A DNA stretch of 64,000 bases from a virus, in the IMG/VR virus record IMGVR_UViG_3300035698_014070, positions 10,229 through 74,228 of that record. One strand, given 5' to 3'. Within the stretch, counting starts at the first letter, position 1. Each line of letters begins with the position of its first letter. A program made the translations under genes and the position numbers. This document shows positions 6,443-44,637 of the stretch, in pieces. A model generated the notes under the pieces. That model saw nothing but the letters and a program-made list of their open reading frames with translations. It did no database searches and was not told the origin of the DNA.

Positions 6443-6649
6443 ATGACTAAAAGAGAAATGACACGTACAGAAATTCAAGCAGAATTAAAGCGAATGAATA
6501 TAGATATGAAGCCTATGTACGAGAAGTTAGGTATCTTATTACAGTTATATGGAGTAGGTCATGAAGATGAAATTAGTAGTGCTATTGCAGAAGAGATAAG
6601 AAAAGAAATAAGAAAGCATCTTAAGAAAGTAAGTTTAAGAGATTTTTAA
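6443..6649 (+). CDS. Small protein ending in SLRDF (tag variant)
   Basis: C-terminus KKVSLRDF*. Confidence 0.6.
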   Translation: MTKREMTRTEIQAELKRMNIDMKPMYEKLGILLQLYGVGHEDEISSAIAEEIRKEIRKHLKKVSLRDF

Positions 6650-9956: not shown

Positions 9957-10234
9957 AAGAGCTAATAGAACAATTAATAAATGTATTAGAATCAAAATAT
10001 GGAACAGGCGATGTTGTAGTATTTACTTTAAAAAATTTACATAGCTCTGCTTATGCGGGTACTAAAATGAAAGAGCATGATGGTAAAAAATGTACAATAG
10101 TTAAATATTTACATACAGATTATGATTTTAATGTTTCATTCTATGATATAGAATTTGATGATGGATATACTCTAAGTAACGCAGGTGATTACATGTTAAA
10201 GCCTTATGTAAATCCTAGTTTGAGAGATATATAA
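9953..10234 (+). CDS. SLRDI-tagged small protein, SH3/KOW-like
   Basis: Leader MKELIEQLINVLE; GDVVVF...GKKCTIV...YDIEFDDG; ends NPSLRDI. Confidence 0.7.
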   Translation: MKELIEQLINVLESKYGTGDVVVFTLKNLHSSAYAGTKMKEHDGKKCTIVKYLHTDYDFNVSFYDIEFDDGYTLSNAGDYMLKPYVNPSLRDI

Positions 10235-25864: not shown

Positions 25865-27466
25865 ATGACTCAGTTACGCGAAGACATTATAGAAAATTAT
25901 CAGTTACTTGAAACTGATACAACTAAGCTGCCTGATGGTGTGTTATGTCGAGTGCAATATCCAATATGCAATATTGGTATATTGAATCGCAATAACCGGG
26001 TGTATGAGAAGGAATTGTGGGATGGTGTGTTAGCTAATAAAGAAGTAGCGCAAAAGCTAGAGAAGCGTTCTCTTTATGGTCAGGCTGAACATCCCAAAGA
26101 AACACAGAGTAATCTTGAAAAGACTTCTCATGTCATACATAGTATGAATGTAAACGAAGATGGATCTAAAATTTCTCAGACTATGGATGTTTTGGATACA
26201 CCATATGGACGGATTATAGACACACTCTTACGTGCAGGTTGTGGTGTTGGCGTATCTACACGAGCAGAAGGTGAATTAGAAGAATGCACTGATGAAAGTA
26301 ATGGAAGTAAATATTTTCGCGTAAAACCTGAGTCATATGATTATGTTACAACCGATTTTACGGCTGATCCTAGTACTATTGATCCATATCCTGAGTCTGT
26401 GCAGCGCGATGTTGTTAGAGAAATAGCAAAAGACTTACATGATAATAGTATAGATAGAGCTTTTGCAATGCCTTTACTTGAATCAATGCAAGTAGATGAA
26501 GCAAAAGAATTGTTGAAAGAAAATAAAGAAAAACCTTTGTTTGAAGACTTTGACAGTGCTTTTGATTGGTTTAAAGATTATTTTAATACCATGGAAGAAG
26601 GAAAAGATAAAGATAAAATTCGTGAAATAATTACTGAAAGCAACTTTGATCCTAATGAAATAATTCCAGCACAAGCATCAACATCTATTGAAGATACAGA
26701 AAAAGAAATAGAAGAAGTAGAAGATGAAGTTGAGAAAGATATTAAAGATGGTGAAACTCAGAAAGATACGACTGAAGAAACTGTTGATGATGCTGAAGAA
26801 TCTATAAATCCATTACTAGCTGTGAAAGATGCACTTATTAAAGAAGCATCTACTCGTGCTGAATTAGAAAAAGCAATAGAGATTATTGAAGAACATCAGT
26901 GCGATGAAAATAATGTAGCTATTGCAGTTTGTAAGATTAAAAATCTACAACAGAAATTAAAAGAACATAGTAAATCATATGATGCAAGAACGAAAGCATT
27001 ACAAACTGCGCTAACTTGTAATGATAAGAAAACAGTTAAAAAAGTAAACGCTTTAAAGATTTCTTTAAAAGAATATTTTAATAAATATAAAACACTTGAT
27101 GAAGTTACAAAAAAGAAATTAGATAAATTAGAACAATGTAATAAAAAAATTGTAACAGAACATAAAGATCGTGTTATAATGATACAAGAAGAATGTGATA
27201 AGAAGATTGTTTCTAGTTACATCACTATGAAATTAGAGCAATCTGGTTTAAAACTGGCAGATAAATCTCGAGCACTTCTTGAAGATTGTAAAACTGTTGG
27301 TGAAGCGGAAACTATGTTGTCTGACTTACGATATACTATGCGTGAAAATGCCCTTCATCATCATTCAGGTGTATCTGAAGAAGCGATTATTATTGAATCG
27401 ACAACTAGTAAATTAGAAGATGAAATCGTAAAGAATGTTAGGTCTTCTTTGGCCGGCATGTCTTGA
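25865..27466 (+). CDS. Prohead protease (T4 gp21-like) fused to a coiled-coil scaffold region
   Basis: NRNNRVYE, GQAEHP, SHVI, LDTPYGRI, GVSTRAEG, DFTADPS motifs. Confidence 0.9.
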   Translation: MTQLREDIIENYQLLETDTTKLPDGVLCRVQYPICNIGILNRNNRVYEKELWDGVLANKEVAQKLEKRSLYGQAEHPKETQSNLEKTSHVIHSMNVNEDGSKISQTMDVLDTPYGRIIDTLLRAGCGVGVSTRAEGELEECTDESNGSKYFRVKPESYDYVTTDFTADPSTIDPYPESVQRDVVREIAKDLHDNSIDRAFAMPLLESMQVDEAKELLKENKEKPLFEDFDSAFDWFKDYFNTMEEGKDKDKIREIITESNFDPNEIIPAQASTSIEDTEKEIEEVEDEVEKDIKDGETQKDTTEETVDDAEESINPLLAVKDALIKEASTRAELEKAIEIIEEHQCDENNVAIAVCKIKNLQQKLKEHSKSYDARTKALQTALTCNDKKTVKKVNALKISLKEYFNKYKTLDEVTKKKLDKLEQCNKKIVTEHKDRVIMIQEECDKKIVSSYITMKLEQSGLKLADKSRALLEDCKTVGEAETMLSDLRYTMRENALHHHSGVSEEAIIIESTTSKLEDEIVKNVRSSLAGMS

Positions 27467-27484
27467 TATTAAGAGGTGATTATT

Positions 27485-28410
27485 ATGGGTATGGACTTAC
27501 GCGCTGCTATGAAAGGGCGTCTTGAAGAAGAAACGATGAAGCGTAATCGCTTAATTGAACGATGGAGTTCAATGATTACGGCTGTTGATAAATATTTACA
27601 AGAGGATCAAAACAGATCTTTAACTTTTTATGACAAACAGAATATTGCACAGTGCTTAGAAAACGCTTTGCTTGAGAATGGTCTTAAAGCTGGTAATAGA
27701 ATGTTTGAAGCAACTAATATGGACAATGTTGAATTCATGGCAATTCAACTTCCTGTTATTGCTGCATTGCTGCCTTCTTTATGTCTTAATAAAGTCTCGA
27801 CGGTACAGGCTTTGGATAGACGTCAAGGAGCTGTATTTTTCTTAGATTTGCAATATGGTACTGCTAAGGGAAATATTGCTGTTGGTGATACGATGATATC
27901 TGCAACTACTGGTCATAACGCCACTGCTGCAAATCTTCGTTATGCTGTAACTACAGCTGACAGTGAAAGTCTTTCTGGTGCTGCTTTAACTTCTAGTGTA
28001 TTGGCTGGTACGTTAACTTATCAACCAATGTTGGGTACAGTTAGTATTGTAGTTACCGATGGCTCTACGTATACAGATAATGTTAATCCTGGTCAAATTG
28101 AGGATTCTAGCGGAAATGTTCTTGGCTGGGTAAAAGTTTCTGGAGCATATGAAATTGATTTTACTGGTGAGTCTGTGATTCCTGATTCTGGTGGTGAAGT
28201 TGCCGCTACGTATTGTTATCAGTATGATCAAGCTGGTGGAGATGATACTCCCACAGTTAATGAAGTCAATATTGATCTTCGCAGTGAAATGATTACCGCA
28301 CAAGATTTCCCGCTGAAAGCTATTTATTCTATGGGCGCATCAATAGATTTACAAAAAGCCCATGGTCTGGTTTTAGAGGACGAGCTTGTTAAGTTCCTTG
28401 GTGGCGAGAT
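27485..28410 (+). CDS. Major capsid protein (T4 gp23-like), exon 1
   Basis: LIERWS, IAQCLEN, LPVIAALLP, VQAL..GAVFFL, LKAIYSM...DLQKAHGL..EDEL; GAGGTG SD before ATG 27485. Confidence 0.9.
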
Positions 28411-29518
28411 TGATTTTGGTCTCGCGTCGTTAGCAATAGCGGCATAGTTAAAACTACTCAATTGCTGGGACACCCTAACAAGTAGTGTTGAGGGCAATCA
28501 GCAGCTGCTAGTATGAAAAGTAAAATGATTAGTGAAAATATAAAATATTGTGAATGTGGTTGTGGAACGCCGATTAAGCCAGCAAATAGATTTGTTAGTG
28601 GTCATAATCGACGTGGAACTAAAAATACTCCTGAGCATAATTTAGCGATAAGTCAGTATAATAAACTCCATAATCCAGCTACAAATAAAGAAACAGCAGT
28701 AAAGATTTCAAAAGCATTGACTGGAAAAAAACAATCATTAGAAACTAGATTAAAAAGATCTAAGTCTTTAACAAATAATCCTAAAGTTATTGCTTCTAGA
28801 ATAGGTAATCAAAATAGAAAAGGAACAACTACAAGTAGCAAAGCTCGTAAGAATATGAGTAATAGTGCTAAAAATAAAGCTTTTTCTGATTCACACAAAG
28901 AAGCAATAAGTAATGGATTGATTAAGTATTTTTCAGTTATAGAGAATAGAATAAAAAGAGTAAAAGAAATTAGTAATAGAATTCAACTTAAAGGTTATCA
29001 GTATAAAAATGGATACTTAAAAATGTCTAATTTTAACCGCAAGTTGTTTTACCGTTCTTCTTATGAAAAGCTAGCTCTTATTATTCTTGATACTAAGTAT
29101 AATGAAATAAAAGATATTTTCACAGAATGTATTCATATTCCATATAAAAACGCAGATGGTTCAACGCGTGTTTACACTCCTGATATTTTTGTTAAAATGA
29201 ATAAAGGGAAAGATATACTTATTGAAGTAAAACCAAATTGCTTTGTTAATAATTCTGATGTTGTTAGAAAAACAGAAGCAGGAATTTTTTGGGCAAAGCA
29301 AAACAACGTTACGTTTTGTATATGGACTGAAGATATTCTTCATAATAGTAGTTCAACGACTACGTGTTTACAAGAGATTGTAAATGCTACGGTAGTCTAC
29401 CCACGTGGTAGAAGGTATAGTCTGAACTCAATGGAAACATTGAGAAGGGAGCAGAAATGACTCTCTCGCTTATTAATATTTTAGCGACTTTGTTAATAAG
29501 TTTACAAGTAACAGATTG
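28411..29518 (+). mobile_element. Group I intron (1108 nt) in the major capsid gene
   Basis: P1: exon GCGAGAT pairs with IGS GTCTCGC (28419-25) with U-G at the splice site. P AATTGCTGGGA (28460), Q AATCAGCAG (28496), R GTTCAACGACTA (29351), S AAGGTATAGTCT (29412), GAAA-capped P9, terminal G 29518. Splicing restores GGE-I-KFEIDR in frame. Confidence 0.92.
28513..29460 (+). CDS. Intron-encoded endonuclease: CECGCG + NUMOD3-like repeats + TnsA N-terminal-like PD-(D/E)xK domain
   Basis: YCECGCG; ISKALTGKKQSLETRLKRS; YRSSYE...IPY...YTPDIFV...LIEVKP. Confidence 0.8.
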   Translation: MKSKMISENIKYCECGCGTPIKPANRFVSGHNRRGTKNTPEHNLAISQYNKLHNPATNKETAVKISKALTGKKQSLETRLKRSKSLTNNPKVIASRIGNQNRKGTTTSSKARKNMSNSAKNKAFSDSHKEAISNGLIKYFSVIENRIKRVKEISNRIQLKGYQYKNGYLKMSNFNRKLFYRSSYEKLALIILDTKYNEIKDIFTECIHIPYKNADGSTRVYTPDIFVKMNKGKDILIEVKPNCFVNNSDVVRKTEAGIFWAKQNNVTFCIWTEDILHNSSSTTTCLQEIVNATVVYPRGRRYSLNSMETLRREQK

Positions 29519-30074
29519 CAAGTTTGAAATTGATCGCTATGGGCTTACTGCTATTGCAGCTGCTGCGACTGGTTCGAGTGCTGCGACAGCGATTGGTACT
29601 TGGACTGGTACTCCTACTACTGGTGAGTCTTGGGTATTCAAGAAATACGAGTGGTTGGATAAATTGGAAGTAGGTAATAACAATATTATCAGCAAAACAA
29701 AGAGAGCTAATGCTAACTTTATTATCTGCGGTAATAATGTTGCTCGTCTGATTCGTCAGATGGAAGGGCATTTTGTTCCTGCTTCTGGTCTTGATAAGAA
29801 TATTCCTACTGGTCCATTTGAGTTAGGTACATTGAATGGTCGTATGGTTATACAAGATCCGTTTATGACGACAGATCGTTATATCATGGGATTCCGCGGT
29901 GATAACTATCTGTTTGCTGGCGCTATATACGCTCCGTATATTCCGCTGTTTGCAACGCCTACAGTTATTCTTGGAAATCTGCAAGCACAAAAGGGCTTTA
30001 TGAGTTCTGCTGGTTTCAAGGTAATTAATGCGGGTATGTATACGTATGGTGATATCGATTTGTCCGGTATTTAA
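29519..30074 (+). CDS. Major capsid protein, exon 2
   Basis: KFEIDR, ANFIICG, GTLNGR..V.QDP, GFRG, AGAIYAPYIP (gp23 C-terminal motifs). Spliced protein is 493 aa. Confidence 0.9.
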
Positions 30075-36688: not shown

Positions 36689-37618
36689 GTGGATTATGAA
36701 TTATATAAAAAATTGTTTTACACAGTAAATGAGCAGACATCTGATTCTAATTATGAACCTTCTCGTGATTTTTTAGATGGAGTAGATAAAATATTTTTGT
36801 CTTTTTCAGAAGAAGAGTGCGAATGGATAGAACAAAACCGCTACTTTTTTTCTGCTAGTAAAATGATTGCTGGCAGTAAAAAAAATGAAGATGGAACATA
36901 TGATTCTAATGTAGATTTAGATTTTAGCAATAAAAAATTTAAAGATGGGAAGTTACCGTTTAAATTAAATAAAGTAAATGGCAGTTTTAAAGTTTTTGAT
37001 TGTGGATTAACAACATTAGAAGGTTGTCCTAAAATAGTTACTAAATTGTTTAGTTGTTTTAAAAATAATCTTACATCATTAAAAGGAGGTCCTGAAGAAG
37101 TTGGAATGCACTATTCTTGCATGGCAAATAAACTTAAATCTTTAGAGTTTCTTCCTAAAAAACTTAGGAGTTTAGATTGTTCAATTAATAAATTACGTTC
37201 ATTAGATAATTTTGTTCCTAATGAATTATCTTCTTTTAGTTGTTTTAAAAATAATCTTACATCATTAAAAGGTAGCCCAACAAAAATAATTAGTTATTTT
37301 GATTGCAGTAGCAATAAACTAACTTCATTAGAAGATGGACCTAGATACGTAGGTGGGGGTTATATTTGTGCAAGAAATAAATTAATATCTTTAAAAGGAG
37401 CTCCTAAATCTATTACTGTAAGTGAAGGGTTTAGTAATTTTAATTGTTCGCATAATGAGTTAACATCATTAGAATTTGCTCCACAATACGTATCTGGAAC
37501 TTTTGATTGTAGTAAAAATAAACTAACTTCTTATGAATTTATACCTAAAAAAGTAAAAAAAGTTATTAGTAAAGGTAATCCAATAACATACGAACAATGG
37601 ATAAAACAAAATGAGTAA
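36689..37618 (+). CDS. Leucine-rich repeat protein (LTSLxGxPxxV type)
   Basis: About 9 divergent 20-26 aa repeats F.C..N.LTSL.G.P. Confidence 0.85.
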   Translation: MDYELYKKLFYTVNEQTSDSNYEPSRDFLDGVDKIFLSFSEEECEWIEQNRYFFSASKMIAGSKKNEDGTYDSNVDLDFSNKKFKDGKLPFKLNKVNGSFKVFDCGLTTLEGCPKIVTKLFSCFKNNLTSLKGGPEEVGMHYSCMANKLKSLEFLPKKLRSLDCSINKLRSLDNFVPNELSSFSCFKNNLTSLKGSPTKIISYFDCSSNKLTSLEDGPRYVGGGYICARNKLISLKGAPKSITVSEGFSNFNCSHNELTSLEFAPQYVSGTFDCSKNKLTSYEFIPKKVKKVISKGNPITYEQWIKQNE

Positions 37619-37979
37619 AAAAAATCCAATACAAAGAAAACCATATGAGCCTGATAAAAGTGAATATCAAATAGCGGTAGATTCGCGTAATTACTTCGTG
37701 GTAAGTCCAAAAACAATAAACGCTGCTATTTTTTTTGGTAAAGGCACTAATTGGAGTATTTCTACACCTGATTTAAAATACAATACATTATATGATGGAT
37801 TTATGCTTTTTGAAAAATATTATATTGTAATTAGAAAACACGATGCTAGAAAATGGTTAGTTATAGCGTTTTCTGATGGAGCTACCGAAACTTATGATGA
37901 GCACTTTACAAGTATTGATGATTATTTAATGATAATAAAAGCAGTAAATCAAGATATAGATGCTGATAAGCGCAAATAA
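37611..37979 (+). CDS. Small paralog of the WCT-type domain in 11114..12487
   Basis: AAIFFGKGTNWSIS resembles EASKKYGAGAPWCT. Confidence 0.5.
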   Translation: MSKKNPIQRKPYEPDKSEYQIAVDSRNYFVVSPKTINAAIFFGKGTNWSISTPDLKYNTLYDGFMLFEKYYIVIRKHDARKWLVIAFSDGATETYDEHFTSIDDYLMIIKAVNQDIDADKRK

Positions 37980-37988
37980 AATTAATAA

Positions 37989-40439
37989 ATGTTTAATGAA
38001 TTATACGAAAATTTAGCTTCTGTTTTAGAGAATAATGGGCATGAGTACTCTAATGTTCAGATAACAATAACAGGTGAACTTTCTAAAAAAATGCTTGATT
38101 ATGGTAAAAGTATACCTGATGAAGAAATTTATACTGATGAGAATGATCCATCGTATGGTAGAGAAAAAGATACACATGTTACTGTGCGGTATGGATTAAC
38201 AACAGACAATCCATCTGAATTACAAAAAGCTTTTACAGATTTTGGCATAATAAAATTAAAAATGAATAATATATCTGTTTTTGAGACAGATGATTATGCT
38301 ATAATTAAAATAGATATTGATAGCAATGATTTACATAAAGCGAATGAATTAGTTGGTGAAACAGAAGATGTACCTGGTGAAACATATAAAGAGTACAAAC
38401 CGCATGCTACAATTGCTTATGTAAAGAAAGGTGCTGGAAAGAAATACATTGATAATAAAACATTTAATGGTGAAGAAATAACTGTTAATACAATTGAATT
38501 GAATGATAGGAACGATACTAAACACACGATAAATTTATCTCGAGATATGTCTGCAGAATGTAAGTTGCAGAAGATCCATAAGGCGACTGTGAGTGAAAAT
38601 GCAGACATTAACGAATTAGATTGGAAAAAGACAGCTAAGGTTGCGGCTGCTACAACAGCAGTAGGATTGGTTGGATTGCTAGGCCAGCAAAAAGCATATA
38701 GAAATTATGATAAAGGACTTATAGCGAACCAATCTGCTTCTGCTGTTACTAAATCTGCTGAGCAACCTGAAGTTCAGCAGAAACTGGCAAAGGAAACTAA
38801 CGTAAATGAAATAGATATAGATAAGATTGCACAAATAGAGTCATCTAATAATCCTACCGCTGTTAATAAAAGAACAGGTACACGCGGGTTATGCCAGTTT
38901 ATGGAGCCAACTTGGAATGATGTTATTAAAAAGATGAAAGTTGATTGGACATGGGAAGATGCTTTTGATCCTAATAAAAACAGAACAGCAGCTGAGTTTT
39001 ATATAAACAAAGACATACCACGTATGTTACAATATTATAAGATAGAGGATACAAATGAAACAAGACTTGCGTCTTATAACTGGGGTATTGGTAATGTGAA
39101 AAAAGCAGTTCGTAAGTATGGAAAAGATTGGATTAATCACATTCCTACAGAAACTCGTAATTATATTCAGAAGTATAATGCATTACAAGAAGTAATTCAG
39201 CATGATGGTGGAAACTTTCAGCACTTTTTTGTTGATGCAAAAGGTTACGCAATACAAGTAGCAAGTCATGTAGAGTATGTAAAGAAAAAACTTGGTACTA
39301 ATTATGCTGATGAAAAAGCAGTTAATAAGTATATGAAAAAGAATAAACTGATACGTTTAGGGCAGACTGAAGATGTTTTGTTTTTCGTATCAGTTGCCAG
39401 TAAAGTAACAGATGTTCAAATAAAAGTATTAAGAAAGCTTCTTCGTTCTGGTACAACATTGTATTACGATATATTTAAAGGAACTAAACGTATTAATTCT
39501 GGTTCAGGATTTAAAGAGTTTTTAGAAGATCTTGAATATTATAAAATGTATAAGCCTAAAACAAACGAATCTACTATTGATTTTCCTAGAGAAGATTTAC
39601 CTACGGAGATATGGACAAAAGAGAATGGTGAATATGTTTTAAGAGATGATGTGTATAATAAGATCGTGAAAACACTGGCACAATATCCTAACGTTGATTT
39701 AAATAAATTAGCTACAACGATGCACATAACTGGTTCAATCGGGACTAATCAGCATGATGATGATTGTGATTTGGATGTACATATATTACCATTAGAAGGT
39801 AAAGCAGATAATCATTTACAAAAAGATGTATTTAAGTGGTTTAATGAAAACAGAGACAAAATTGATGGATACGTTGGTGAACATCCTATTGAAGTATATA
39901 TTCAGTTAGATCCACAGCAAGAATTGTTTGCAGATGCGGCGTATGATGTTGGTAATAAGAGATGGTTAAAGGGTCCTAAGAAAGCTGCTTCGTCTTATAA
40001 TCCGTATGAAGAGTTTAAAGAATTGTTAGTAGATGTAGTAAGTGATGCAGAAGAAGCTGATAAGGTATTGGGTGAACTTAAGCGAGATACAATAGATTAT
40101 ACAACTATTGTTCGCGCGATGCGCTACCTAAGTACAGGTGATAAAGAACACTTACACGATATGCTATTATCAAAGTCGGTTGAGATTGATGCAGATATAC
40201 GTGCGTTGATTAAACAAAAAGGAGAGTGGACAAACGCTCGCCATATGTCATCGCAAGCCACACCCGAAGATGCCTTAAAAGATGTAGACATTGCTAAAAG
40301 ATGGAAAGATGAAAATGCAAAATTTAAATTTATGAATCGCTACAATTACGTCAAGCTTATAAAAGATCTTGAAGATATGATTAAAGATGAAGAGCTTTCT
40401 GATAGAGAAATAAATCTTATACAAAGAACTTTAACATGA
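37989..40439 (+). CDS. Polyvalent protein: 2H phosphoesterase (Acb1/gp57B-like) + SLT lytic transglycosylase + nucleotidyltransferase-like domain
   Basis: THVTVRYG / PHATIAY (two HxT); QIESS..P.A..GLCQFM..TW, SYNWG, ETRNY; ITGS...DLDVHI...PIEVY. Confidence 0.75.
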   Translation: MFNELYENLASVLENNGHEYSNVQITITGELSKKMLDYGKSIPDEEIYTDENDPSYGREKDTHVTVRYGLTTDNPSELQKAFTDFGIIKLKMNNISVFETDDYAIIKIDIDSNDLHKANELVGETEDVPGETYKEYKPHATIAYVKKGAGKKYIDNKTFNGEEITVNTIELNDRNDTKHTINLSRDMSAECKLQKIHKATVSENADINELDWKKTAKVAAATTAVGLVGLLGQQKAYRNYDKGLIANQSASAVTKSAEQPEVQQKLAKETNVNEIDIDKIAQIESSNNPTAVNKRTGTRGLCQFMEPTWNDVIKKMKVDWTWEDAFDPNKNRTAAEFYINKDIPRMLQYYKIEDTNETRLASYNWGIGNVKKAVRKYGKDWINHIPTETRNYIQKYNALQEVIQHDGGNFQHFFVDAKGYAIQVASHVEYVKKKLGTNYADEKAVNKYMKKNKLIRLGQTEDVLFFVSVASKVTDVQIKVLRKLLRSGTTLYYDIFKGTKRINSGSGFKEFLEDLEYYKMYKPKTNESTIDFPREDLPTEIWTKENGEYVLRDDVYNKIVKTLAQYPNVDLNKLATTMHITGSIGTNQHDDDCDLDVHILPLEGKADNHLQKDVFKWFNENRDKIDGYVGEHPIEVYIQLDPQQELFADAAYDVGNKRWLKGPKKAASSYNPYEEFKELLVDVVSDAEEADKVLGELKRDTIDYTTIVRAMRYLSTGDKEHLHDMLLSKSVEIDADIRALIKQKGEWTNARHMSSQATPEDALKDVDIAKRWKDENAKFKFMNRYNYVKLIKDLEDMIKDEELSDREINLIQRTLT

Positions 40440-40516
40440 AAAAATTAATTGAACAACTTGAAAAATGTGTTACTGAAATAAATCCTATAAGTGAAAAGGT
40501 GAAAATTTATGGATAA
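40436..40516 (+). CDS. 26-aa mini-ORF consisting of leader plus duplicated tail
   Basis: Manual translation MKKLIEQLEKCVTEINPISEKVKIYG*; overlaps both neighbours. Confidence 0.45.
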   Translation: MKKLIEQLEKCVTEINPISEKVKIYG

Positions 40517-41159
40517 GTTAGTTGAATATCTTATTAAAGAAGTAGAGAAGCAAGCTTCAGATGAAGAGTTTTTAGATAAAGTTGTTGATGGAACATACAC
40601 ATTAAACTCTGATGGCAGTTATGATGTAGTTGGTAATGTAAAAGTGTTTAAAACGCAATCAACTTTTATTTTTGTAAAATTTAGAAAAGTAAGTGGAAAT
40701 TTTATTTGTAGTTATAATGACTTAACAACATTAGAAGGCGCACCTAAAGAAGTAGGTGGAAATTTTACTTGTAACAACAATATCTTAACAACATTAGAAG
40801 GCGCACCTAAAGAAGTAGGTGGAAATTTTACTTGTAGTTATAATGACTTAACAACATTAGAAGGCGCACCTAAAGAAGTAGGTGGAAATTTTACTTGTAG
40901 TTATAATGACTTAACAACATTAGAAGGCGCACCTAAAGAAGTAGGTGGAAATTTTACTTGTAAAAACAATTACTTAACAACATTAGAAGGCGCACCTAAA
41001 GAAGTAGGTGGAAATTTTACTTGTAAAAACAATGACTTAACAACATTAGAAGGATTAAATTATGTTAAAGGTAAAATTATTTATAATAATAATCCTATGA
41101 ATTGTGAAGAAGAAATAAAAAAGCACAAACAAAGAAAAGCATCACTTAGAGATATATAA
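40509..41159 (+). CDS. SLRDI-tagged leucine-rich repeat protein
   Basis: Leader MDKLVEYLIKEVE; 22-aa repeats; ends KASLRDI. Confidence 0.85.
   Translation: MDKLVEYLIKEVEKQASDEEFLDKVVDGTYTLNSDGSYDVVGNVKVFKTQSTFIFVKFRKVSGNFICSYNDLTTLEGAPKEVGGNFTCNNNILTTLEGAPKEVGGNFTCSYNDLTTLEGAPKEVGGNFTCSYNDLTTLEGAPKEVGGNFTCKNNYLTTLEGAPKEVGGNFTCKNNDLTTLEGLNYVKGKIIYNNNPMNCEEEIKKHKQRKASLRDI
40694..41053 (+). repeat. Near-perfect 66-bp coding tandem repeat, about 5.5 copies
   Basis: Unit GGAAATTTTACTTGT-(12 variable nt)-TTAACAACATTAGAAGGCGCACCTAAAGAAGTAGGT. Confidence 0.95.
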
Positions 41160-41160
41160 A

Positions 41161-41631
41161 ATGTCTAAAATGATTCCTAATAGATCTATTGCAGCGTTTA
41201 GAAATTTTAATGACGTAAGCGTAAATAATTTCGGCTTTGAAGTAGATTTGTATATACCTAATAATGTATACGCAGATGTTGAAGATAATGATGCGTACTC
41301 TAAACCTGGAGATTACGAATACGATCATTATACTGCTATGGTATTTATAGATTGGTCGCCAAACATATATAGATTACGAAATATTGGTATGTATACAGAA
41401 GGTGAGTTACCTATACTAGCTCGTTTTAAAACAACAGCGACTAATGATACAGGCGTGTCTGAAAGTGTTGATATTGTAAGGCATAGTTATATTAAGGTAC
41501 CAACACAGTACGTGCCTGATAAAACGAGTGTCACTGATGAGTTTGATATAGTAGATGTATTGACATTTAATATGCATGATGCGGCGTTAGCTAAACAGTA
41601 CAAGTTGGCGCCAAGGAGAACGTTAGACTAA
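41161..41631 (+). CDS. Possible head-closure/neck protein
   Basis: Position before tail-completion and sheath genes; beta-rich. No firm motif. Confidence 0.4.
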   Translation: MSKMIPNRSIAAFRNFNDVSVNNFGFEVDLYIPNNVYADVEDNDAYSKPGDYEYDHYTAMVFIDWSPNIYRLRNIGMYTEGELPILARFKTTATNDTGVSESVDIVRHSYIKVPTQYVPDKTSVTDEFDIVDVLTFNMHDAALAKQYKLAPRRTLD

Positions 41632-41834
41632 TGCAGAAAGTAACAAACTTAACGAATGAAAGTATACATTTATATATTTCAGGAATGGTTAAGCTAATTC
41701 TTGGTCCACATGAGAGTATAACTGTGGATATTAGTGGTATAATGAATTTGCCTGAAATACGCTCTAAGATTTTGATTGGTGAAAACTTGACAGAAGTAAA
41801 TCCAGTAAGTGGAAAGATGCCTTTGTATGGATAA
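41631..41834 (+). CDS. Small hypothetical protein
   Basis: KVTNLT...I.L......LILGPHES pattern; coupled ORF. Confidence 0.55.
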   Translation: MQKVTNLTNESIHLYISGMVKLILGPHESITVDISGIMNLPEIRSKILIGENLTEVNPVSGKMPLYG

Positions 41835-42267
41835 GTTAATTAAACAATTAATCGATGAAATGGCAAAATCCAGTAAAAAAACATTAGCTCAAATGGATTT
41901 AAAAGAAATTCCAGAGATAAGTAAAGTGAAACATTTAAATCAATTAGCTGTGTGGGCAGCTAGACTTGGTTATCCAGAGCTTATTCATCTTGCATTAGAT
42001 AATGGAGCTAAGTTAGAACAAAAAGATATTGAACAATTAGCTATGCACGCGCTAAGATATAAATCTATTCCTATGGCTGAAATAGCAGCAGATTTAGGTT
42101 GGGACAAAGATATGGATATTGCTGATGATAGAGCTGGATTAGATTCTGAAAATATTGATTGGCAAATAAAAAAGTGTAAAAATAATAAAACATCAAATAT
42201 TGATTTTTACATATGGTTACGTGATAAATTTAATATAGTACCACTTGGTAGTTTAAGAGATATTTAA
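41827..42267 (+). CDS. SLRDI-tagged ankyrin-repeat-like protein
   Basis: Start reassigned to 41827: MDKLIKQLIDE; LAVWAARLGYPELIHLALDNGA ankyrin-like; ends GSLRDI. Confidence 0.65.
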   Translation: MDKLIKQLIDEMAKSSKKTLAQMDLKEIPEISKVKHLNQLAVWAARLGYPELIHLALDNGAKLEQKDIEQLAMHALRYKSIPMAEIAADLGWDKDMDIADDRAGLDSENIDWQIKKCKNNKTSNIDFYIWLRDKFNIVPLGSLRDI

Positions 42268-42959
42268 TGTCGAGTAGTTTTTTAAAATGTATCGATGAAG
42301 GTTTGCGAGCATTATTGTTCACAAAGTTTCAAACCATAATGGGTTTAACAGCGTCAAATGACGCAGAAGAAACGTCTGTTATTATATTCCCAAAACGTGT
42401 AGCACAACGTATGATGGCAGAAAAGAGAGGACGCCACGAACTAGAGTTTATAAATTTATGGAGATCAACTGAGCAGTTTGATTGGAGTAGACAAAGAAGT
42501 TTTGTTGCACGTAATGGAATGCATTTAGAATATACGGATAGCAACACTAATTCAATTGTTACAATAAAAGGTATTCCAGTTGTACTTCCATATAGTATTT
42601 GGTTTTGGAGTACGGATTTTGATAAACTTAATAATGTAAAAATAGAATATTTATTTTGGCAGCATGAGAATCCATATTTAAGTTTATCTTATAATGATAG
42701 TTACCCTGTTGAAATGGACTTACATTTTGGAGATATTGTTGATGAGTCTGATATTGAAAATATGTTTAATGTAGGTAAGTATCATGTAATTATGATGCCT
42801 ATAACTATAGATGGTTGGGTGTTTAAAACTACAAATCCTGGCGTAGTACAGAAAATTGTGGTTACTATATATGATCAAGATAGCATTGAAGATAGAACTG
42901 AATTTTTAGCTTCTCCAAATACAGAGTTGCAGTTGTATCAAGAAGAAATAGAAGAATAA
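42267..42959 (+). CDS. Tail terminator/completion protein candidate (gp15-like position)
   Basis: Immediately upstream of the sheath; IPVVLPYSIWFW and ITIDGW pattern. Confidence 0.5.
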   Translation: MSSSFLKCIDEGLRALLFTKFQTIMGLTASNDAEETSVIIFPKRVAQRMMAEKRGRHELEFINLWRSTEQFDWSRQRSFVARNGMHLEYTDSNTNSIVTIKGIPVVLPYSIWFWSTDFDKLNNVKIEYLFWQHENPYLSLSYNDSYPVEMDLHFGDIVDESDIENMFNVGKYHVIMMPITIDGWVFKTTNPGVVQKIVVTIYDQDSIEDRTEFLASPNTELQLYQEEIEE

Positions 42960-42975
42960 TATAAGGAGTTATATA

Positions 42976-44637
42976 ATGGGCTTTTATATGTCACCCGGTG
43001 TTTATAGTAAAGAGAAAGATATTTCTAATATCATTCCTACCATTTCGTCTACTACAGCTGCTTTAGTTGGATGTTCTGTAAAGGGTAGTTTAGATGTTAC
43101 GAGTGTTACTAATTCTCAGCAGTTTATAGAAGAGTATGGTAAACCTGTACCAGGAAATTATTTCCACTATACTGCATTAGCATTTTTAGAAAACGGAAAT
43201 AGTTTATACTGTAAACGGGTAATTAATGCAGCACTATACGGTGGAATGGATGTGTATGAAGCAGATGCTGGAACAAATATAGCATTTACTTCTGGTGAAA
43301 CAACTGCTGAGTTTACCTATGCATCTTCAGAAGATGAAGTAATATTGCAAATATTTGGTAAAGATCCAGGTGTGTGGGATAATCGTATTAGTATTAATAT
43401 TGGAAATGTTCAAGAAACTATAGATACTACATATAAAGATAGTGATGAAGAAGATATCGCACTTCCAACTGTTGAACAGTATACATTTAGTATTGAAGTA
43501 TGGTATGAGAACGATGAAGGAACAGATGAATTAGTTGAATCATGGAAAGTTAGTCGTAAAACAAAAACAGATGGTAATGGACGACAGCTATATCTTGAAG
43601 ATGTAATAAATGGTTATAGTAAATATATTCTTGTATATGATAATACAGATATTGCTGATACAAGTTTACCTGAAAGTAATGGTACATTAGGTGTTGTAAC
43701 AGACGCAGTTACTTTAGGTGGTGGAAGTGATGGTGGTACAGTTACAGCGGCTGCTAAAGTTTTAGGATGGACAGAATTTGAAAATCCAGATGATGTAGAT
43801 ATTCGAATTATGTTAAACGGCGGTGAAACAGATGTATCTGTTCAAACTGAAATGAAGCGCGTTGCAGAAGCTCGTAAAGATTGTTTTGCTATTTTAGATA
43901 TACCGTATGCACAACTTTCTAGTATTACGAATATGCTTACATGGAGAATGAGTACGCAAAATTTTGATTCTAGTTACACAGCTTTATATGCACCGTGGGT
44001 AAAAGCTTATGATGCGTATAATGATGTGCTTCTCGAATTGCCGCCTTCTGGATATGTTGGTTCGCAGTATGTTTATAATGATTTTAATGCTGAAGTGTGG
44101 TACGCCCCTGCTGGTCATACTCGAGGTAAATTAAATGTATTAAGTTTGACAGATGTATTTACACAAGGTGAGCGTGATCAATTATATCCAAGACAAATTA
44201 ATCCACTACAAACATTCCGTGGTCGTGGTAATGTTATATGGGGACAAAAAACACAGCAGTTTAAAGCATCCGCACTTAGTAGTGTCAATGTTCGTAGGCT
44301 TTTGATTATAATAGAAAAAGCAGTAGCTATTGCAATGCAGGACTTTGTGTTTGAACCAAATAATGATTTGACGCGTTTTAAAGTTGAAGCAGTTATTACT
44401 GAATATATGGATAATCTTTCAGCAAAAGGAGCGTTTCAAACTGAAGCTGGTGATGATGGATATGCAGTAATATGTAATACGACAAACAATACGCCTGCGA
44501 TTATTGATTTAAATGAACTACATGTAGATATATTTGTAAAGCCTTCACGCGCCGCAGAGTATATTCAGTTACAAACTATTATCACACCGACTGGAGCATC
44601 ATTTAATGAGTTAATAAGTCGTGGAGTTTTGTTATAA
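42976..44637 (+). CDS. Tail sheath protein
   Basis: SPGVYSKEKD, RKDCFAILD, SSYTALYAPW, PPSG, WYAPAG..RG, INP, WGQKT, VNVRRL, FEPN. Confidence 0.95.
   Translation: MGFYMSPGVYSKEKDISNIIPTISSTTAALVGCSVKGSLDVTSVTNSQQFIEEYGKPVPGNYFHYTALAFLENGNSLYCKRVINAALYGGMDVYEADAGTNIAFTSGETTAEFTYASSEDEVILQIFGKDPGVWDNRISINIGNVQETIDTTYKDSDEEDIALPTVEQYTFSIEVWYENDEGTDELVESWKVSRKTKTDGNGRQLYLEDVINGYSKYILVYDNTDIADTSLPESNGTLGVVTDAVTLGGGSDGGTVTAAAKVLGWTEFENPDDVDIRIMLNGGETDVSVQTEMKRVAEARKDCFAILDIPYAQLSSITNMLTWRMSTQNFDSSYTALYAPWVKAYDAYNDVLLELPPSGYVGSQYVYNDFNAEVWYAPAGHTRGKLNVLSLTDVFTQGERDQLYPRQINPLQTFRGRGNVIWGQKTQQFKASALSSVNVRRLLIIIEKAVAIAMQDFVFEPNNDLTRFKVEAVITEYMDNLSAKGAFQTEAGDDGYAVICNTTNNTPAIIDLNELHVDIFVKPSRAAEYIQLQTIITPTGASFNELISRGVLL

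Follow-up and report, generated by a model that had tools for sequence, protein, structure and literature searches.

Organization of the fused gene

The DNA analysed here, a window of 64,000 nucleotides from IMG/VR virus record IMGVR_UViG_3300035698_014070 (positions 10,229 to 74,228 of that record), makes up most of a single 74,228-bp contig with a GC content of about 32% and every gene on the + strand. One open reading frame (ORF) of this window (37989..40439, +; protein P0001) is intact over 816 codons, followed by a stop codon and with no internal stop, and joins what elsewhere are a 2H phosphoesterase gene, an SLT lytic transglycosylase gene and a gene for a middle domain followed by a nucleotidyltransferase (NTase). 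All of the elements that a preliminary description of the sequence had listed for it, namely leader, 2H domain, hydrophobic segment, SLT domain, middle domain and NTase, were recovered.

The protein begins with an amphipathic leader resembling a capsid-targeting sequence (aa 1-14, MFNELYENLASVLE; 37989..38030, +), which ends in V-L-E and is modelled as a detached helix with a predicted local distance difference test score (pLDDT) below 50. Next come the 2H phosphoesterase domain (aa 17-185; 38037..38543, +) with its motifs H63xT65 and H139xT141, a first seam with a disordered linker that includes M187, VSE203 and INE209 (aa 186-209; 38544..38615, +; pLDDT <50), and an Ala/Gly/Thr-rich, weakly hydrophobic segment (aa 214-233; 38628..38687, +; Kyte-Doolittle mean 1.17 over 19 aa). 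The SLT domain (aa 264-399; 38778..39185, +), recognised by PF01464 and by its motifs, is separated by a second seam, Q400-E401 (39186..39191, +), from the middle domain (aa 402-520; 39192..39548, +). The second seam completes the sequence L-Q-E and coincides with the aligned ends of free SLT genes, and the middle domain corresponds to a variable N-terminal extension of NTase proteins in relatives. The Pol-beta-type NTase with its C-terminal helical bundle (aa 528-816; 39570..40436, +) follows after T-N-E527.

The 2H/SLT seam (nt ~38601-38615) is bridged by contigs of three sequencing runs (X1, X2 and X3), and the seams at nt ~39190 and ~39568 by contigs of X1 and X4, in each case with zero differences. 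Since these are independent salt-lake metagenome contigs, the long ORF is not an assembly chimera. Near-identical sequence to window positions 37800-40600 was found in salt-lake metagenome runs of nine studies from 2017-2019, which indicates a phage population that persists in the salt-lake habitat. The earlier proposal of a fused protein is thus borne out: modules which are independent genes or proteins in relatives are joined end to end here. No Shine-Dalgarno-like sequence was found before the ATG of the ORF (window 37960-37991) or before the ATG of M187 (38530-38549). Residue M187 may be the vestigial start of a once-separate SLT gene (MSAECKLQKIHKATVSENADINE|LDWKK).

The SLT domain matches PF01464 over aa 264-380 with 54.9 bits (cut-off 21.3; E 8e-15), and all of its catalytic motifs are present (E284-S285, GLCQ300 and YNWG363). 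In PHROGs, this part of the protein matches families of endolysins, lytic tail proteins and internal virion proteins; a phmmer search of PDB sequences with the whole protein yielded a marginal SLT match only. The hydrophobic segment at aa 214-233 is kept in SLT relatives and may serve as a membrane anchor or be SAR-like (a releasable signal anchor). The middle domain (aa ~402-520) is poorly conserved and modelled with low pLDDT. Its assignment as PD-(D/E)xK-like was considered and rejected, as ESM Atlas leads reached only 0.80-0.83 and the alignment has no conserved D...(D/E)xK motif.

Synteny and module shuffling

Related loci were collected by a pattern scan of IMG/VR based on a 10-sequence NTase alignment, which gave 530 loci, of which 80 were retrieved and compared; the window proteins were searched by phmmer against the ORFs of these 80 loci. 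Gene order is kept among them, as protease, capsid, g30608, ..., g33849, ..., g34931, [SLT], NTase, g41161, ..., g42267, sheath. The downstream end of this SLT/NTase slot (g41161, g42267 and tail sheath; 41161..44637, +) is conserved, with the sheath present in 57 loci and g41161 and g42267 in 54 each, and capsid protein and protease were detected in every related locus whose flank extends that far. The NTase was found in 80/80 loci and the 2H domain in none of them. Loci L012, L008, L001, L040 and L031 encode SLT (182-205 aa) and NTase (~300-330 aa) in two neighbouring genes, and in L009/P0030, L019, L020, P0002 and P0042 the two are fused. The ORF therefore joins two neighbouring genes of the lineage, with an imported 2H gene placed in front, and the NTase gene belongs to the lineage at a conserved position and is no free accessory, a point that the preliminary description had missed.

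In the window, the slot is preceded by a gp21-type prohead protease gene (25865..27466, +; PF03420 28.8 bits, cut-off 27; phrog_207, 2.5e-27), and the tail sheath gene lies 2.5 kb downstream of the ORF (phrog_23, 1e-79). The contig also encodes a T4-type portal (PF07230), and the closest portals of cultured phages, from Maribacter, Bacillus SP-15 and Flavobacterium phages, are about 25-28% identical to it.

More distant relatives combine the modules differently. Protein P0002 (611 aa) aligns with aa 207-809 and has no 2H domain; P0003 (723 aa) shares only aa 527-816, after an unrelated N-terminal region; P0005 carries the 2H domain at the N-terminus of a Mu gpI-like protease/scaffold protein, and P0004 carries it at its C-terminus. 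The differing module sets of P0002, P0003 and P0005 indicate that the three modules shuffle independently.

Leaders, candidate cleavage sites and proposed delivery

In phage T4, native as well as foreign proteins are carried into the prohead by capsid-targeting sequences of 10-20 aa, which gp21 cuts off after Glu, and the capsid-targeted cargo ends up inside the infected cell (PMC9026906, PMC7411985). In the lineage studied here, the N-terminus of the free SLT proteins forms an amphipathic leader (among others MNELLEQLLQETDSRVNE and MRELLEKTLAVNE) of the pattern M.ELLEQLL..., and in all nine N-termini examined of free or N-terminal SLT proteins this leader ends with [VILM]-x-E right before [LF]D.KK and the hydrophobic segment. 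In the alignment, ADINE209|LDWKK of the fusion is the junction homologous to this leader/mature boundary, h-x-E|[LF]D.KK. Free SLT genes of relatives end at the residue aligned with L399, which places LQE401 exactly on the second seam. Relatives composed of middle domain and NTase (P0037, P0059, P0026 and L005) have leaders such as MRELLEKMLRADE, free NTases have similar ones, and so have free relatives of the 2H domain (P0017, MEDLLNKLLE; P0023). By a loose criterion, leader-like N-termini occur in 17 of 38 head-region ORFs versus 9 of 48 ORFs elsewhere (p = 0.017), and the scaffold-like protein and the prohead protease of the window share this style of leader. The models give pLDDT values below 50 to leader (aa 1-15) and linker (aa 186-205) alike, the 2H core being above 90, so that leader and first seam, if disordered as modelled, would both be accessible.

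The preliminary description held that domain boundaries coincide with x-x-E sites, those it named mapping to aa 14, 203/209, 274, 401 and 527. Coincidence with a bare x-x-E is trivial because Glu accounts for 8% of the residues. For the stricter [LIVMF]-x-E, of which the protein has 16 sites, three of four seam windows are hit (p = 0.042, random-placement simulation); VNE274 is off the seams and is not conserved in P0002. Statistical support for the seam Glu sites, as for the enrichment of leaders, is modest.

We lean, by no means firmly, towards reading this protein as polyvalent capsid-targeted cargo which arose by gene fusion, is trimmed by protease at the leader and probably at INE209, and is ejected at infection. 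Such a packaged, protease-trimmed and ejected protein, which the preliminary description had likewise proposed, is plausible given the domains with intact catalytic motifs, the fusion, the synteny, the leaders and the protease described above, from which we infer packaging, cleavage, ejection and substrates. In a myovirus with a T4-like head, three late genes would have been fused end to end: a horizontally acquired 2H phosphoesterase with its own capsid-targeting-like leader, the SLT lytic transglycosylase of the lineage with its weakly hydrophobic segment, and the conserved Pol-beta-type NTase of the lineage with its variable N-terminal middle domain. The amphipathic leader would dock the protein onto the scaffolding core of the prohead, and the gp21-type protease would cut it off after VLE14, probably also cutting the exposed INE209 and perhaps LQE401 and TNE527, to leave up to three enzymes in the head. 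These would exit with the DNA at infection, SLT opening the peptidoglycan, and 2H and NTase acting in the cytoplasm on host nucleotide or RNA-end chemistry. The fused protein would then be "polyvalent" and ejected, with the T4 capsid-targeting route in place of an anchor on portal or MuF. Since ejected virion proteins are active ahead of any phage gene expression, they would be the first counter of the phage to host defences.

Several observations weigh against this proposal. The gene slot adjoins tail-completion and sheath genes and not scaffold and protease, and a hydrophobic segment is unusual for a soluble head cargo. The site VNE274 has the shortcomings already given, and LQE401, judging from its position at the fusion seam, could have arisen there fortuitously. 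The site TNE527 has Thr three residues before the cut, as in just 4/124 members of the NTase family; Glu precedes the invariant Ser in 111/124 of these members, and L, V, I, M or F stands three positions before the cut in 102/124. Members with only two to four upstream residues (MKTES..., MLES...) still have Glu-Ser, so that Glu527 may be a structural part of the domain and not a cleavage site. Moreover, the fused protein does not carry the C-terminal SLRDI tag of other putative cargo in the window (see below). It also has no cultured relative: a blastn search with the ORF and a tblastn search with the NTase domain of 50,697 GenBank phages gave no match. A family-wide h-x-E|S boundary had been considered as proof of cleavage before the NTase, and was dropped since leaderless members retain Glu-Ser.

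Some of these points suit a single unprocessed "polyvalent" chain, packaged or injected with at most its leader removed, in which the seam Glu residues are not cleavage sites, the hydrophobic segment anchors the protein in the inner membrane and SLT lies in the periplasm. Precedents for transfer without cleavage are the virion RNA polymerase of phage N4 and several conjugative polyvalent proteins (PMC5512222). In addition, SLT and NTase are repeatedly found fused (P0002, P0030, P0042, L019 and L020), Glu527 is conserved without a leader, and VNE274 is not conserved. We nevertheless regard an unprocessed chain as unlikely: INE209 keeps the h-x-E|[LF]D.KK junction exactly where relatives have the end of their propeptide, the linker is disordered in the model, and a single membrane span would put the NTase beside SLT in the periplasm, without nucleoside triphosphates.

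It is also conceivable that the protein is no head cargo at all, SLT being a SAR-type endolysin or a tail or neck lysin, the fused enzymes acting late in the cytoplasm, and the "leaders" being ordinary helices. The free SLT relatives, with 182-205 aa and an N-terminal Gly/Ala-rich, weakly hydrophobic segment, do have the size and layout of SAR endolysins; the endolysin and lytic tail protein families among the PHROG matches, the adjoining tail genes, and the 9/48 ORFs outside the head region that pass the loose leader criterion agree with this possibility. However, an exported endolysin flanked on both sides by cytoplasmic-type enzymes would be topologically awkward, and many head-region ORFs share the leader style, as do the protease and the scaffold-like protein. 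Elsewhere the 2H clade occurs fused to portals and to a Mu-like scaffold/protease, and one NTase relative bears an ART domain typical of polyvalent proteins. A lysin outside the head thus seems distinctly improbable.

Two further features of the window touch on the question of head cargo. In the capsid protein (window 27476-27720, and L007, L014, L021, L027 and L032), an [LM]-x-E|[AT]T motif is conserved near residue 79; it is likely to be a maturation cleavage site, which would fit a T4-like protease specificity in this lineage. Separately, between window positions 6443 and 42267, nine otherwise unrelated small ORFs end with SLRDI, TLRDI or SLRDF right before the stop codon (ORF ends at 6649, 7816, 10234, 11114, 12802, 14287, 14658, 41159 and 42267), and most of these also have an amphipathic leader.

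Identity and possible function of the 2H domain

The motifs H63xT65 and H139xT141 are invariant in the clade of this domain, and the duplicated alpha+beta fold of 2H enzymes is present. Pfam scores are below the 27-bit cut-off both for PF13563 (19.8-22.7 bits) and for the Acb1 family PF23474 (18.4 bits with the whole protein, 21.4 with the domain alone); these sub-threshold matches cover aa ~51-149, and the "RNA ligase" family phrog_755 also matches the 2H part. All ten 2H relatives match PF13563 (best 3.5e-12) and PF23474 (best 1.4e-8). PF02834 (LigT_PEase) does not match this sequence, and matches five of the ten relatives weakly (best 6.8e-5).

Sequence profiles and structure place the domain differently. 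With the profile of the clade, matches to PDB sequences were weak, with Acb1 first (9q2g, E 0.0047; 7t26, E 0.21) and YjcG at E 0.37. Alignment by hhalign gave E 0.0018 against T4 Acb1, at a probability of only 15% and over 51 columns, and E 0.056 against E. coli ThpR, at a probability of 1%. In structural comparisons, the model scored highest with TT0787 (1iuh; 15.7), the cyclic phosphodiesterase (CPDase) of D. radiodurans (15.4) and E. coli LigT (~15), ahead of YjcG (14.9), Usb1 (14.0) and Acb1 (7t26; 12.2, with 134/137 residues aligned), and Foldseek ranked Usb1 and the penguinpox cGAMP phosphodiesterase at the top. Acb1 is a compact fold of ~150 aa with a C-terminal lid (W147, E141) and the stacking aromatics Y12, W74 and F107 (Hobbs 2022, PMC9117128). 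In the alignment, W74 and F107 of T4 Acb1 correspond to the invariant F98 and to Y133 of the 2H domain; the 2H domain, at ~170 aa, has full size, and a counterpart of the lid was not identified in it.

The preliminary description had taken the domain for a putative anti-CBASS enzyme of the Acb1 type, CBASS being an antiphage signalling system based on cyclic oligonucleotides, and had named clustering with LigT RNA ligases, together with a lack of cyclic-nucleotide activity, as what would speak against it. What stands is a 2H enzyme with both HxT motifs; the label Acb1 is not established, with PF23474 below threshold and the structure nearest to LigT-type enzymes, even as sequence profiles put Acb1 first. 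Motif evidence alone does not justify calling virion-borne 2H domains "Acb1-like".

The closest 2H relatives, of up to 57% identity, lie within proteins of 500-1,900 aa, among them three kinds of portal fusion (PF04860, PF06074 and PF05136), a protein with LPD23, a domain characteristic of large polyvalent proteins, and a PolyA_pol fusion (P0189). By its relatives in sequence, then, the domain belongs to a clade whose members occur joined to portals, to scaffolds and to "polyvalent" proteins. It is the 2H clade that was reported by Iyer et al. 2017 from polyvalent proteins with MuF or portal, and for which they proposed a role either as RNase or in degrading nucleotide signals (PMC5512222).

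An Acb1-like 2H domain would destroy cyclic oligonucleotide signals, those of CBASS and possibly of type III CRISPR or Thoeris, upon DNA entry. This role agrees with the prediction just cited, with the rank of Acb1 proteins among profile matches and the hhalign preference over ThpR, with the PF23474 matches of all ten relatives, and with the aromatic counterparts F98 and Y133. It remains doubtful, if possible, given the sub-threshold Pfam score, the low hhalign probability, the full size of the domain and the lid for which no counterpart was identified.

The NTase family and its fusion partners

The NTase signature, ITG582S583IGTNQHDDDCD594LD596VHI, fits hG[GS]-x(9-13)-Dh[DE]h. Residues G582, D594 and D596 are invariant in 127 sequences, S583, H598, H632 and P633 nearly so, and a third carboxylate, E635 (HPIEVY), is invariant in the closer NTase set. 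In the model of aa 529-816 (pLDDT 96-98), a bundle of five helices comes after an alpha/beta core. With aa 400-816 as query, an exhaustive HMMER search retrieved at least 478 cluster representatives at 50% identity, 86 of them at E <= 1e-30; nearly all matches begin at query position ~125 (aa ~524), and many are stand-alone proteins of ~300 aa.

Placement among known NTases is less direct. The NTase of this sequence has no Pfam match. Its relative P0034 passes PF01909 with 25.5 bits (cut-off 21), and other relatives touch the PAP/TUTase, Polbeta and adenylate-cyclase-N models. Its neighbours in the ESM Atlas are viral clusters with PF01909 in 25-58% of members, and its BFVD matches are uncharacterised Caudovirales proteins only. 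A Foldseek search of the model against PDB gave no match below 1e-3, and the family profile gave weak PDB matches only (2rff, 0.019; DrrA, 0.06); among such weak matches to solved structures are minimal NTases, DrrA, Trf4, CdnC/CdnD, MntA and ANT.

Fusion partners of the NTase were counted among 152 representatives. The cell-wall hydrolase Hydrolase_2 occurs in 13 of these, in ten of them together with LysM, and SLT in 6. The domain cRec (PF20274), predicted to process cyclic phosphates (PMC7824862), occurs in three (P0155, P0157 and P0167), ART-PolyVal in one, and LigD Prim-Pol together with an ATP-dependent DNA ligase in one, the 2,290-aa protein P0135. Distant NTase members listed with a C-terminal Hydrolase_2 plus LysM are P0121, P0123, P0125, P0128, P0143, P0147, P0149, P0155, P0157, P0167 and P0135, and cRec sometimes sits between the NTase and Hydrolase_2 plus LysM in such distant members. 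The NTase is thus linked to wall hydrolases of two Pfam kinds and to two unrelated cyclic-phosphate-processing domains, 2H and cRec. From these domain architectures, convergent fusion partners would seem the most informative new clue to its function.

The tie to both 2H and cRec raises the alternative that 2H and NTase act jointly on RNA 3' ends. The 2H domain would open 2',3'-cyclic phosphates left by host metal-independent RNases (such as HEPN or anticodon nucleases) and the NTase would re-extend the end, or else the NTase would nucleotidylate and neutralise toxins of this kind in the manner of MNT antitoxins; either way, the virion would pre-emptively deliver a counter to RNA-targeting abortive infection. 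Besides the independent fusions to cRec, this alternative draws on the 2H relative P0189, fused to a PolyA_pol/CCA-type NTase, on P0135, whose LigD Prim-Pol and ATP-dependent ligase are end-repair enzymes, on the LigT/CPDase RNA-end enzymes that are the best structural matches of the 2H domain, and on the resemblance of the NTase core to minimal MNT-type and PAP/TUTase-type NTases. We hold it with considerable doubt: the cRec fusions are few, no RNA ligase or kinase was seen in the 74-kb contig, every structure match of the NTase is weak, and the presence of the NTase in all of the 80 loci, each without 2H, indicates that it has a function of its own.

It is tempting to go one step further, admittedly as a long shot, and to suppose that the NTase represents a new class of virion-delivered enzyme which, with a cyclic-phosphate-opening partner and a wall hydrolase, repairs or pre-empts damage in abortive infection based on host RNases (HEPN, anticodon nucleases). 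If so, 2H here and cRec elsewhere would stand for at least two independent recruitments of a cyclic-phosphate-opening partner, and the fused protein would be a self-contained "enter, heal, re-extend" cartridge, freed by the capsid protease and acting within the first seconds. Whatever its substrate, this is a large, uncharacterised family with intact catalytic motifs (at least 478 clusters at 50% identity and at least 530 IMG/VR loci), and its linkage to wall hydrolases and cyclic-phosphate-processing domains suggests a directly assayable function.

Comparison with known systems

The principle has been published on both sides, for T4 in its capsid-targeted cargo and for phage polyvalent proteins that combine 2H, lysozyme and NTase domains; packaging and injection have been predicted for the latter (Iyer, Burroughs, Anand, de Souza, Aravind 2017, PMC5512222). 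Like these polyvalent proteins, the protein described here unites disparate enzyme domains (peptidoglycan hydrolase, 2H and Pol-beta NTase) in one late-gene polypeptide of a phage with portal and terminase, encoded between capsid and sheath genes, and it shares with them 2H relatives in portal fusions and an LPD23 protein as well as an NTase relative with ART-PolyVal. Unlike them, it has no portal, MuF or zincin metallopeptidase module, its targeting and processing are proposed to depend on a T4-type N-terminal leader and the prohead protease, and its NTase belongs to a ~290-aa family with a helical bundle and is not the minimal Firmicute/ArdC-linked NTase of PMC5512222.

The parallel with the T4 cargo (IPI-III and Alt, with gp21) lies in the short amphipathic leader ending with hydrophobic-x-Glu, in the enzymatic nature of the cargo, as in Alt, and in the gp21-type protease, T4-type portal and gp23-type capsid protein encoded by the phage. 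The leaders are not homologous to those of T4 and are recognised here from sequence, and three cargo genes are joined in one chain with candidate internal sites. With Acb1 (T4 gp57B; PDB 7T26) the protein shares the 2H fold and HxT/HxT tetrad, aromatic counterparts at two of four base-stacking positions, and the best profile match among solved structures. An SLT domain in a virion module, presumed to open peptidoglycan at entry, is likewise found in lytic tail proteins and in internal virion proteins of the T7 gp16 type (phrog_342); here, unlike in these, the phage is a myovirus, and the SLT domain comes after a segment of weak hydrophobicity and has an NTase fused to it or encoded next to it.

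What would be new is the capsid-targeting-leader route for a three-enzyme fusion, the apparent derivation of this fusion from adjacent cargo genes with seam Glu sites retained, and the recognition of a large conserved NTase family with convergent domain partners. The locus provides a compact, testable case in which a multi-enzyme fusion appears to be loaded by capsid-targeting leaders and not by anchors of the portal or MuF kind.

Other features of the neighbourhood

The gp23-type major capsid gene of the window is split into two ORFs, 27476-28447 (Pfam Gp23 positions 5-182) and 29457-30074 (positions 183-347), with an ORF for a TnsA-like endonuclease (28513-29460) between them. The capsid gene is also in pieces in L027 and L013, and whole in L007, L014, L021 and L032. 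A search of Rfam at gathering scores found no match in the window, including any intron at the split capsid gene.

Paralogous leucine-rich-repeat (LRR)-like proteins (phrog_21719 / phrog_7816) are encoded on either side of the fused ORF, at 36689-37618 and 40509-41159. Genes of this type vary in position and copy number inside the otherwise conserved block in L001, L005, L007, L013, L049 and L058, in the manner of movable cassettes.

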